A stretch of DNA of 64,000 nt, from contig CAWEHK010000052.1 of assembly GCA_963808625.1 (NCBI GenBank), positions 9,105-73,104 of the forward strand, in the 5' to 3' direction. Origin of the DNA: an uncultured delta proteobacterium (GTDB lineage Bacteria > Desulfobacterota > Syntrophobacteria > Syntrophobacterales > Syntrophobacteraceae). Below the pieces are notes generated by a model. The model ran no database searches. It had not been told where the DNA came from and worked only from the letters and a program-made list of their open reading frames with translations. Of the stretch, positions 34,884 through 36,453 are shown piece after piece (within the stretch, counting starts at the first letter, position 1; each line of letters starts with the position of its first letter). The translations under genes and the position numbers were made by a program.

Positions 34884-34908
34884 GCGGTTTCGTCCTCCTT
34901 TCTTTTAT

Positions 34909-35123
34909 CCACGAAGTCACACGAAGATCACGAAAACACACTAAGAACAAACCTCTGTTTCTGCCTTCGTGTTGCTTCGTGAGCATTCGTGGATCGTTTT
35001 TCCTTTATCCACGAAGACACACGAAGATGAACGAAGAGCCACGAAGGTCAACGAAGACAAACCAATGGAAGTGAAGGAACAATTCGTGTCACTTCGTTCT
35101 CTTTTCTTCGTGTGCATTCGTGG
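34909..35123. repeat. Two tandem family B palindromic repeats (CCACGAAG...TTCGTGG)
   Basis: ccacgaagtcacacgaag...ttcgtgagcattcgtgg and ccacgaagacacacgaag...ttcgtgtgcattcgtgg; half copies near 33536 and 46158. Confidence 0.75.
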
Positions 35124-35132
35124 ATCGCTTTC

Positions 35133-35168
35133 AAAAAAAAAGCCGTGGAATCTGGGAATCCACGGCTT
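35133..35168 (-). terminator. Second intrinsic terminator in the paaK leader
   Basis: minus strand AAGCCGTGGATTCCCAGATTCCACGGC followed by 9 T. Confidence 0.8.
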
Positions 35169-35177
35169 CACAAAAGC

Positions 35178-35217
35178 AAAAAAACCATGGGTTCCGCAGT
35201 GTGCCTACCCATGGTTT
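35178..35217 (-). terminator. Attenuator terminator (3:4) in the paaK leader
   Basis: minus strand AAACCATGGGT-AGGCACACTGCGGA-ACCCATGG followed by 7 T. Confidence 0.8.
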
Positions 35218-35242
35218 CAGTCGGTGTCCGGTCCGGTTCAGC

Positions 35243-35326
35243 CTACTTCGCCCCACAGGCAGGCTTACTGAAATAAAAGCCTCCCCCAAAACAAAAACGG
35301 TACAAGTAATAGAACCGGTTAATCAT
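35243..35326 (-). CDS. Phe/Tyr-rich leader peptide MINRFYYLYRFCFGGGFYFSKPACGAK (27 aa)
   Basis: ATG preceded by GAGGG; 5 Phe + 4 Tyr codons; overlaps alternative hairpins; immediately upstream of the terminators and paaK. Confidence 0.85.
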   Translation of the reverse strand: MINRFYYLYRFCFGGGFYFSKPACGAK

Positions 35327-35469
35327 GCTGCCCTCGCAACAAAATATTTCCTCACCTTACCGGCAATGATTACCGAGTTTGCAGACCTCTGTCAATACCA
35401 AAAGAACCGCGCCACAAGATGGGCGCTCAAGATGGCAGGTAAGAAACTATATCAAAGCTCGCTCACCCC

Positions 35470-35538
35470 GTCACCCCGGCGGAAGCCTGGGTCCAGAATC
35501 CCTGGAAAAACTTGGATTCCGGCTTTCGCCGGAATGAC
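35470..35538. repeat. Family C palindrome
   Basis: gtcacccccggcggaagcctgggtccag ... ttggattccggctttcgccggaatgac. Confidence 0.7.
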
Positions 35539-35597
35539 GACCAGTGGCGTTTCGAGCACTTTGAGATAATTCCCAAGCGGTCGCCCGCAACTGCCTC

Positions 35598-35716
35598 CAG
35601 CCACTGACCACTGTTCACTGCCTACTCCTTACTCCTTACTCCCTACTCCCTACTGCTTACTGCTTACTGCTTACTCCATACTGCCTACTCCTTACTGCCT
35701 ACTCCCTACTCCCTAC
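35598..35716. repeat. Heptamer tandem repeat (CTACTCC/TTACTCC/TTACTGC)
   Basis: More than ten consecutive 7-nt units running into the stop codon of the TPR gene. Confidence 0.85.
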
Positions 35717-36453
35717 TGCTCACTGCCCTTCTGAGCGGTCGGTGCCTTCATCTTGGAGTTCAGGGATGCGCGCTCATCCTGAAGAAGGGCGGGACTGGGG
35801 TAGTTGCCTGGAGCTTTGAGCAATATTTCATACTGTTCGGCAGCTTTTGCGTATTCGCCTTTTTGGGCGTACAGCCTCGCGAGGTTCCAGTCCGCTTCTT
35901 TCTTGAGCTCTGAGGACTCGGTCCCTTTCAGATTGTTCCAGAGGGCTATCGCCTCATCCGTTTTGCCAAGAGCTTCGTAAGTGAATGCCTGTTGATACTG
36001 GGCCAGGATCTTGAGACCCTGGTCGCCCGCGGCCTGATCGAGCACTTTCTTGTTCCAGTTTAGAGCGTTTTCGTATTGCTGGATTTGAAAATAAGCACGC
36101 GCCAAGTCAAGTTGTGCATCCTTGACCGGTGCGGTTCCGGAATGGTCCGCAAGAAACTTTTCCAGTTCCGGGATGAGCTTTTCCCATGCCTGGCGGGTAC
36201 TATTGTCGTCCCCGGGCCATCTTTGCAGCACTTTTGCGTAGTCAACCTGTGCCCGCCGCTCCTTGGACTGGCCATAGGCATTGAATCCCCAAAAGCCGCC
36301 CAGAACCAAACAGAGGGCCACCAGCCCGGCAAGGATCCGGTTAAAGTGCTGCTCGATCCATTCTTTCGAAAAGGCGGGGGTGGCCGCAAGCTCCAGGGCC
36401 TTTTGTGCCTTCAGGGCTTCCTTTTTCGGAATTTTGATCTTCTTTATTCCCAA
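35713..36453 (-). CDS. Membrane-anchored TPR protein (YfgM-like)
   Basis: Basic N-terminus, one TM helix, TPR-like helices (LARAYF...[17 protein letters not shown]). Confidence 0.8.

Follow-up and report, generated by a model that had tools for sequence, protein, structure and literature searches.

The locus considered here raises the question of why an operon for a phenylacetate-CoA ligase and an ABC importer is preceded by a short reading frame rich in aromatic codons, and whether the operon serves the breakdown or the formation of aromatic amino acids. It is located on contig CAWEHK010000052.1 (assembly GCA_963808625.1) of an uncultured delta proteobacterium of the Syntrophobacteraceae; the whole stretch of DNA that was analyzed, 64,000 nt in length, is referred to as the window. 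The initial annotation of the window had read the region as a leader-peptide attenuator responding to Phe and Tyr, and the genes behind it as an anabolic salvage route for aryl acids. The two proposals are taken up in turn, beginning with the leader.

Leader ORF and upstream signals

The leader ORF is encoded on the minus strand (35326-35243) and comprises 27 codons, five for Phe and four for Tyr. As the initial annotation had noted, it is accompanied by a GAGGG ribosome-binding site (35335-35331, minus strand), which is located 4 nt upstream of the ATG. A sigma-70-type promoter-like site is predicted further upstream on the same strand (35395-35366, 10/12 matches), with TTGACA at 35395-35390 and a weak -10 element. 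Of the 31,995 ORFs in the genome that start with ATG and comprise 18-35 codons, only seven contain at least nine Phe/Tyr codons.

For the comparison across species, 31 leaders were aligned, i.e. the window leader, those of 27 relatives and three from more distant genomes, while one leader cut by a contig end and the shorter forms were excluded. All 31 carry TTGAC(A) 58-100 nt upstream of the leader start, and an SD-like 4-mer precedes the start in 25. Each leader contains 5-11 Phe codons. In total, 220 Phe codons stand against 36 Tyr codons, and Tyr is absent from 12 of the leaders, which indicates that the paaK leader family senses mainly Phe. The sensing of both amino acids, as proposed initially, therefore holds for Phe, whereas an equal role of Tyr throughout the family is ruled out by the codon counts; Tyr likely contributes to sensing in this genus only.

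The leaders also show a coding signal. In the sensor part of the 31 leaders, Phe accounts for 38.5% of the codons in frame versus 20% and 17% in the other two frames, and stop codons are absent in frame versus 19 and 15 occurrences in the others. Against 219 observed Phe codons, dinucleotide shuffles yielded 141 ± 5 with a maximum of 155 in 500, counts that do not translate into probabilities since the compared leaders are kin. The last Phe (codon 19 in the window ORF) is invariant and is encoded by TTT in 20 and by TTC in 11 leaders. The leader peptide is otherwise little conserved, and its length ranges from 18 to 31. In one relative (L019), the ORF terminates right after the Phe run with RNA segment 2 (see below) intact, so that the peptide tail is dispensable. 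The paaK leader thus combines a short upstream ORF and its start site with a stretch of codons specifying a single amino acid and a conserved frame, as is characteristic of leader peptides.

Three repeat types flank the leader (34890-35128, 35465-35545 and 35610-35725). They are a CACGAA/TTCGTG-rich spacer, a palindromic element and an array of heptamers, for which BLAST against the genome gave 47, 81 and 117 hits, respectively. The CACGAA/TTCGTG-rich spacer lengthens the gap between terminator and first gene to 258 nt, the range across the family being 29-260 nt.

RNA segments and alternative helices

Six RNA segments, all on the minus strand, can be delineated within and downstream of the leader ORF. 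Segment 1 (35282-35277, AGGCUU) pairs with the 5' half of segment 2 (35266-35253), which is located inside the ORF and has segment 3 (35216-35203) as its other possible partner. Segment 3 can pair with segment 2 or segment 4; segment 4, listed here with the first U-run (35195-35178), forms either the 3:4 hairpin or a helix with segment 5 (35168-35155). Segment 5 in turn pairs with segment 4 or with segment 6, which together with its U9 tract (35151-35133) completes a distal hairpin resembling an intrinsic terminator.

The pairings originally suggested for segments 1 to 4 were all recovered. AGGCUU (35282-35277) is complementary to AAGCCU (35266-35261), giving a 1:2 helix of -6.9 kcal/mol, which is the default fold when no ribosome is present. 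The 2:3 helix joins 35264-35253 to 35214-35203 by 12 bp including three G-U pairs (-20.2 kcal/mol), and the 3:4 hairpin (35216-35183, -14.3 kcal/mol) is followed by U7 (35184-35178), two U of which close the stem. The segment count of four, in contrast, did not stand and is replaced by a six-segment relay, as two further helices within the same region had been overlooked. The 4:5 helix pairs 35195-35182 with 35168-35155 (13 pairs and one mismatch, -15.4 kcal/mol). The 5:6 hairpin with its U9 tract spans 35168-35133 (-14.4 kcal/mol), the hairpin proper being 35168-35140 in the minimum-energy fold. Summed over the alternatives, 2:3 and 4:5 amount to -35.7 kcal/mol and 1:2, 3:4 and 5:6 to -35.6 kcal/mol, near-equal values that are indicative of a balanced relay. 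The fold of the region has a z-score of -4.16, and none of 200 shuffles folded as well.

Both helix sets are conserved among the 31 leaders. The terminated set (1:2, 3:4 and 5:6) is 92.0% paired with two-sided changes in 13 of its 26 pairs, and the read-through set (2:3 and 4:5) is 93.9% paired with two-sided changes in 8 of 25, as compared with 28-53% pairing in slid controls. Among the individual helices, 1:2 is paired in 85.6% of the cells (two-sided changes in 2/7 pairs), 2:3 in 98.7%, with one pair being UA in 16 and CG in 15 sequences, 3:4 in 95.4%, 4:5 in 89.3% and 5:6 in 93.2% (two-sided changes in 7/9 pairs). The helices were scored on an alignment made from sequence only; the structures were drawn from the same, related sequences, so that the covariation is strong yet carries no formal probability. 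Upstream of the paaK orthologs, the alignment shows the conserved Phe-rich small ORF together with covarying 2:3 and 3:4 stems, features for which the initial annotation had proposed to look.

At least six T within the next 9 nt are found after 5:6 in 28 of the 31 leaders and after 3:4 in 20, which makes the distal hairpin the more constant terminator; the 3:4 hairpin is a possible first one. A G+C hairpin with a U-tract is hence situated between promoter and first gene, as in intrinsic terminators, even though a simple terminator scan missed 5:6, whose loop is longer than the scan allows. Mutually exclusive terminator and antiterminator helices overlap the ORF. A further hairpin between segment 2 and the stop-codon region (-9.3 kcal/mol) was rejected, its covariation not exceeding that of shuffles and its folding probability being low.

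Taken together, the region is very probably a real and conserved leader-peptide attenuator, with six segments arranged as in his-type attenuators and with Phe as the main amino acid sensed. Conservation, the reading-frame signal and covariation, all drawn from sequence, thereby back the earlier reading of the region as a case of leader-peptide attenuation.

Proposed switching mechanism

With Phe plentiful, the ribosome would reach the UAG codon and cover segment 2, allowing 3:4 to form. Segment 5 would then be free to pair with segment 6, and transcription would end at one of the two U-runs. When Phe is in short supply, a ribosome stalled in the Phe run would disrupt 1:2, and 2:3 could form ahead of the synthesis of segment 4. 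Segment 4, kept free by the 2:3 helix, would capture segment 5, leaving no U-tailed hairpin and permitting read-through. If the leader is not translated, 1:2 would persist and termination would be the default.

Partial transcripts were folded with the ribosome at different positions. In RNA that extends to the end of segment 5, a ribosome placed on the mid-leader Phe makes 2:3 and 4:5 the dominant helices in 29 of the 31 leaders, one placed on the stop codon makes 3:4 dominant in 26, and 1:2 forms in 20 when no ribosome is present. At equilibrium, 3:4 beats 2:3 as soon as segment 4 is complete, whatever the ribosome position, and in the full-length RNA 5:6 wins for every ribosome position. Stalling hence favors the antiterminator in nascent RNA ending after segment 3 or segment 5 but fails to do so at full-length equilibrium, and read-through requires that 2:3 and 4:5 are kinetically trapped. 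As for strand displacement, the sequence offers 3:4 a foothold of only 2 nt on 2:3, and segment 6 has none on 4:5. With the ribosome stalled at the invariant last Phe, 2:3 is allowed under one assumed footprint and blocked under another.

Genes downstream of the leader

The first gene under the leader encodes a paaK-like AMP-forming arylacetate-CoA ligase of 433 aa (34883-33582, minus strand). It scores 640.6 bits against TIGR02155, just below the cut-off of 646.3, and its nearest solved structure is 2y27 (E 1e-157). The following gene (33471-33040, minus strand) encodes a 143-aa protein with a pair of ACT domains (PF19571, E 7.5e-31), which is found immediately downstream of paaK in all 12 loci compared (L182-L193). 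An ABC importer of the LIV family, livK-livH-livM-livG-livF, is encoded next (32937-28245, minus strand), and a second, divergent ligase-like gene, paaK2, completes the operon (28241-26930, minus strand). The full gene order is conserved in nine of the 12 loci.

Frameshifts interrupt livK, livH, livM and paaK2 in this assembly. All ten relatives that have the liv genes carry them intact, and paaK2 is split in one of nine relatives; as copies of iorA and aroF elsewhere in the genome are also split, assembly indels are the likely cause. The P-loop motif of paaK2 is altered, reading TAxG instead of ASSGTT here and in all nine relatives checked, and judging from this motif, the protein may be a partner of the ligase that is inactive or has a regulatory function. 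Further along the minus strand, an ATPase-like gene with a GARQVGKT motif (25722-24419) is split over three frames.

Distribution of the leader

An ortholog of the ligase with 70-95% identity is encoded in 39 of 40 relatives, and the upstream DNA is covered for 33 of these. The full six-segment leader is present in 27 of the 33, and in one more it is interrupted by a contig end with segments 2-6 visible. In three relatives of a single family (L028, L030 and L031), a Phe-rich ORF is combined with four segments, and the single hairpin of this shorter form adjoins the ribosome site of the ligase gene. In two others of the same family (L032 and L033), the leader ORF is lost and one hairpin is located behind a promoter-like site. 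Among more distant orthologs of the phylum, the full leader is found directly upstream in 3 of 21 and no leader in the remaining 18.

A pattern scan of named genomes returned at least 120 loci, most of them chance matches, with at least 91 lacking a Phe/Tyr-rich ORF. An upstream ORF with at least four Phe/Tyr codons is found at 29 or more loci, of which at least 26 clearly represent the paaK-type element and three look spurious. Among the matches listed, the element precedes a paaK-like ligase (72-84% identity) in at least 12 cases, a DAHP synthase in at least one and another ORF in at least one, and 12 have no downstream DNA. The named carriers include Syntrophobacteraceae, Desulfacinum, Desulfosoma and Desulfobacterales, a range that by itself makes the Syntrophobacterales a likely source of the window. 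Two of the carriers, Desulfacinum infernum and D. hydrothermale, are cultured.

Related leaders for other amino acids

At 24 of 30 loci with a paralogous operon of the order livKHMGF-ligase-iorAB, the operon is preceded by a leader containing a Tyr run (22 identified by script and two by inspection). Two of the remaining loci retain the scaffold with few Tyr codons, and four are without the scaffold. In the 24 aligned sequences, the same four helices (2:3, 3:4, 4:5 and 5:6) are 98-99% paired. One such leader, with the run YYYGYF, is located before livKHMGF-ligase-iorA-iorB on the plus strand of contig C10 (70106-70270; L234, L240); it was missed by the genome-wide filter for Phe/Tyr-rich small ORFs and recovered by a profile search. 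A third operon, iorA2-iorB2-liv-ligase, is preceded by a Trp-run leader in three of 20 loci (L275, L291 and L292). In the window genome, the Trp run is absent before the third operon (C50:73244-73284, L293) and the hairpin is retained. In a midpoint-rooted tree of 25 proteins from chosen loci, each of the three ligase types falls into a well-supported clade of its own.

Leader ORFs with hairpins are also found in this genome in front of biosynthetic genes, namely three copies of aroF-tyrA, pheA, trpB2 and leuA. These leaders are located on contigs C33 (near 50615, plus strand, and near 186342, minus strand), C37 (near 21866, minus), C42 (near 17907, minus), C5 (near 14100, minus) and C2 (near 52820, plus). 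Their codons match the downstream genes: Tyr for aroF-tyrA, Tyr/Phe for pheA, WWW for trpB2 and LLLL for leuA. At one further locus (L113), a DAHP synthase is encoded behind the paaK-type scaffold, the ORF of which is rich in Tyr there.

Comparison with known attenuators and aryl-acid pathways

In the hisL attenuator of Salmonella and E. coli, helices A:B, C:D and E:F alternate with B:C and D:E. The paaK leader resembles it in its six alternating segments, the run of cognate codons, the selection of a helix set by ribosome position, and the distal hairpin with a U-tract. Unlike hisL, it senses Phe and is targeted at a ligase and an importer instead of a de novo pathway, and a U-run also follows its middle hairpin in roughly two thirds of cases, making two relayed terminators possible. 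A short Phe-rich leader ORF with a switchable intrinsic terminator is likewise found in pheL-pheA and pheM-pheST of Gammaproteobacteria, but in another lineage and before other target genes. The mechanism is classical and textbook in kind, working like hisL and pheL, and the leader belongs to no Rfam leader family. The sole match to the Rfam family Phe_leader (RF01859) reaches 16.5 bits (gathering threshold 55) and is located on the opposite strand outside the paaK leader. Rfam matches at E up to 10 are chance matches only and include no T-box, and a search of 12 related loci returned one tRNA and no leader family.

A predicted terminator is listed 39 nt upstream of the phenylacetate-CoA ligase gene Sfum_1683 of Syntrophobacter fumaroxidans in Table S8 of PMC2965389, of which all eight phenylacetate rows and 32 of 94 Syntrophobacter rows are considered here. 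The gene for the ligand-binding protein Sfum_1681 follows two genes past Sfum_1683, the same order as in the paaK operon. On account of this gene order, the listed terminator probably corresponds to hairpin 5:6 of a paaK-type leader. Its entry, one among thousands of rows, carries '-' as attenuator annotation, the rows concerned recognize no leader ORF, relay or function, and the portions of the main text covered nowhere mention phenylacetate (PMC2965389). Neither PMC2700814 nor PMC10102598 contains a passage on phenylacetate or indolepyruvate oxidoreductase (IOR), and PMC6167468 provides table rows only. No description of the paaK-leader element was found in the open literature, a scope outside which subscription papers on delta-proteobacterial attenuation and T-boxes fall.

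According to passages of PMC3462420 and PMC4162585, aryl acids feed the synthesis of aromatic amino acids in Methanococcus via IOR. An AMP-forming ligase encoded beside the IOR of Bacteroides is described in parts of PMC13285125 as an arylacetate-CoA ligase that accepts indole-, phenyl- and hydroxyphenylacetate, and a biosynthetic role is suggested there; the same paper also cites a Bacteroides IOR that turns Phe into phenylacetate. The present system resembles the aryl-acid pathway of Methanococcus maripaludis and the Bacteroides cluster in the combination of an arylacetate-CoA ligase with IorAB. It differs in having three paralogous operons, each with an amino acid leader of its own, a form of control that the passages covered do not describe. 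For Desulfococcus multivorans, parts of PMC5109826 tie growth on phenylacetate to another ligase (FadD4) and assign an IOR to the breakdown of phenylpyruvate.

Salvage or breakdown of phenylacetate

Attenuators induced by starvation govern the supply of the amino acid that they sense. For the paaK operon, this would mean that the importer LivKHMGF takes up phenylacetate, that the paaK-like ligase converts it to phenylacetyl-CoA, that IorAB, encoded elsewhere in the genome, reductively carboxylates the latter to phenylpyruvate, and that an aminotransferase finally yields Phe. The two enzymes of a methanococcal-type aryl-acid route, IorAB and an AMP-forming arylacetate-CoA ligase, are both encoded. 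In the window genome, iorAB is located outside the paaK-ACT-liv operon. In 26 of 40 distant loci (four of them chosen for a known iorB), iorAB is found just upstream of the orthologous ligase. Among the 25 such iorAB-ligase loci with upstream DNA, a Phe/Tyr leader precedes iorA in two, and no leader is seen in the other 23.

IorA is present in all 41 genomes, while the ring-opening hydrolase Oah is found in only two. The window genome, which is 84.6% complete, yielded no PaaA/C, and with Dch and Oah below the cut-off no ring-degrading set was recognized in it at this completeness. Phenylacetyl-CoA consequently has an anabolic exit, whereas a catabolic one is not evident in most carriers. Against the anabolic reading, the genome also encodes prephenate dehydratase (pheA), which makes the salvage of Phe dispensable, and oxidative roles are documented for IOR. 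The anabolic role put forward in the initial annotation thus gains indirect support from the Tyr and Trp paralogs, from the distribution of IorA versus Oah, and from the like leaders before biosynthetic genes.

The same attenuator could, however, serve the supply of Phe in a different manner, with the LIV system importing Phe or phenylpyruvate and the ligase either recapturing phenylacetate leaked by IOR or activating another aryl acid. The nearest named models of the importer are indeed branched-chain amino acid transporters, but it is the ligase, rather than the importer, that comes first under the leader and varies least in its presence there; in two of 12 loci, only paaK-ACT is found under the leader within the DNA covered, an arrangement that was counted in favor of this alternative. 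That the ligase falls just under the PaaK cut-off and that Phe is made de novo would also be compatible with it. In contrast, the three ligase clades match the three leader types, as would be expected for three aryl acids, and the ligase is linked to iorAB across the phylum. On balance, this alternative is considered rather unlikely. It is thus likely, though less firmly so than the attenuator as such, that the leader senses Phe and drives an operon for the salvage of phenylacetate to phenylalanine.

Leaders of the TnaC type are marked by a conserved peptide that causes arrest and ends at the stop codon. If the paaK leader worked in this reversed manner, excess Phe or phenylacetate would stall the ribosome and induce a catabolic or fermentative operon. 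The leader peptide is variable, no arrest peptide ending at the stop codon was recognized in it, and 5-11 Phe codons with little other conservation, including one leader that ends after the Phe run, do not fit such a design. The names paaK and iorAB are mostly applied to breakdown, and IOR is described as oxidative in Pyrococcus and catabolic in D. multivorans in the parts of PMC13285125 and PMC5109826 considered. A ribosome at the stop codon nevertheless leads to the terminated fold, the same scaffold precedes biosynthetic genes, and the marker of ring degradation, Oah, is nearly absent from the genomes compared, so that a reversed leader is very improbable. Slightly less credit still is given to a constitutive or protein-controlled terminator pair with the U-rich ORF as a by-product of base composition, since the GCCGTGG...CCACGGC hairpin does occur at several genome sites, some without a leader ORF, and two relatives retain one hairpin without the ORF, but the frame bias, the lack of in-frame stops, the synonymous TTT/TTC change, the covariation of the 2:3 and 4:5 helices and the agreement of codon type with the downstream pathway (Phe, Tyr, Trp or Leu) all argue against it.

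Implications

The paaK leader represents an attenuator family that is not yet catalogued and that relays two hairpins, in a phylum without any such entry in Rfam. In anaerobes, paaK and iorAB are usually read as genes of aromatic breakdown or amino acid fermentation, and a switch responding to starvation points the opposite way. The direction of flux through bacterial IOR is raised as a question for Bacteroides in parts of PMC13285125, on enzyme grounds alone; the set of Phe, Tyr and Trp leaders constitutes separate, regulatory evidence on this matter. It also predicts one substrate each for three uncharacterized ligases and their binding proteins, and the hypothesis can be tested in the cultured carriers Desulfacinum infernum and D. 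hydrothermale.

In its widest form, a proposal to which we give about even chances, Syntrophobacterales would keep three paralogous aryl-acid salvage operons under relay attenuators for Phe, Tyr and Trp. Sulfate reducers and syntrophs would thereby possess an anabolic route, unrecognized so far, for regenerating these three amino acids from phenylacetate, hydroxyphenylacetate and indoleacetate excreted by fermenting neighbors, and many genes annotated as paaK and iorAB in anaerobes may then have been assigned the wrong direction.
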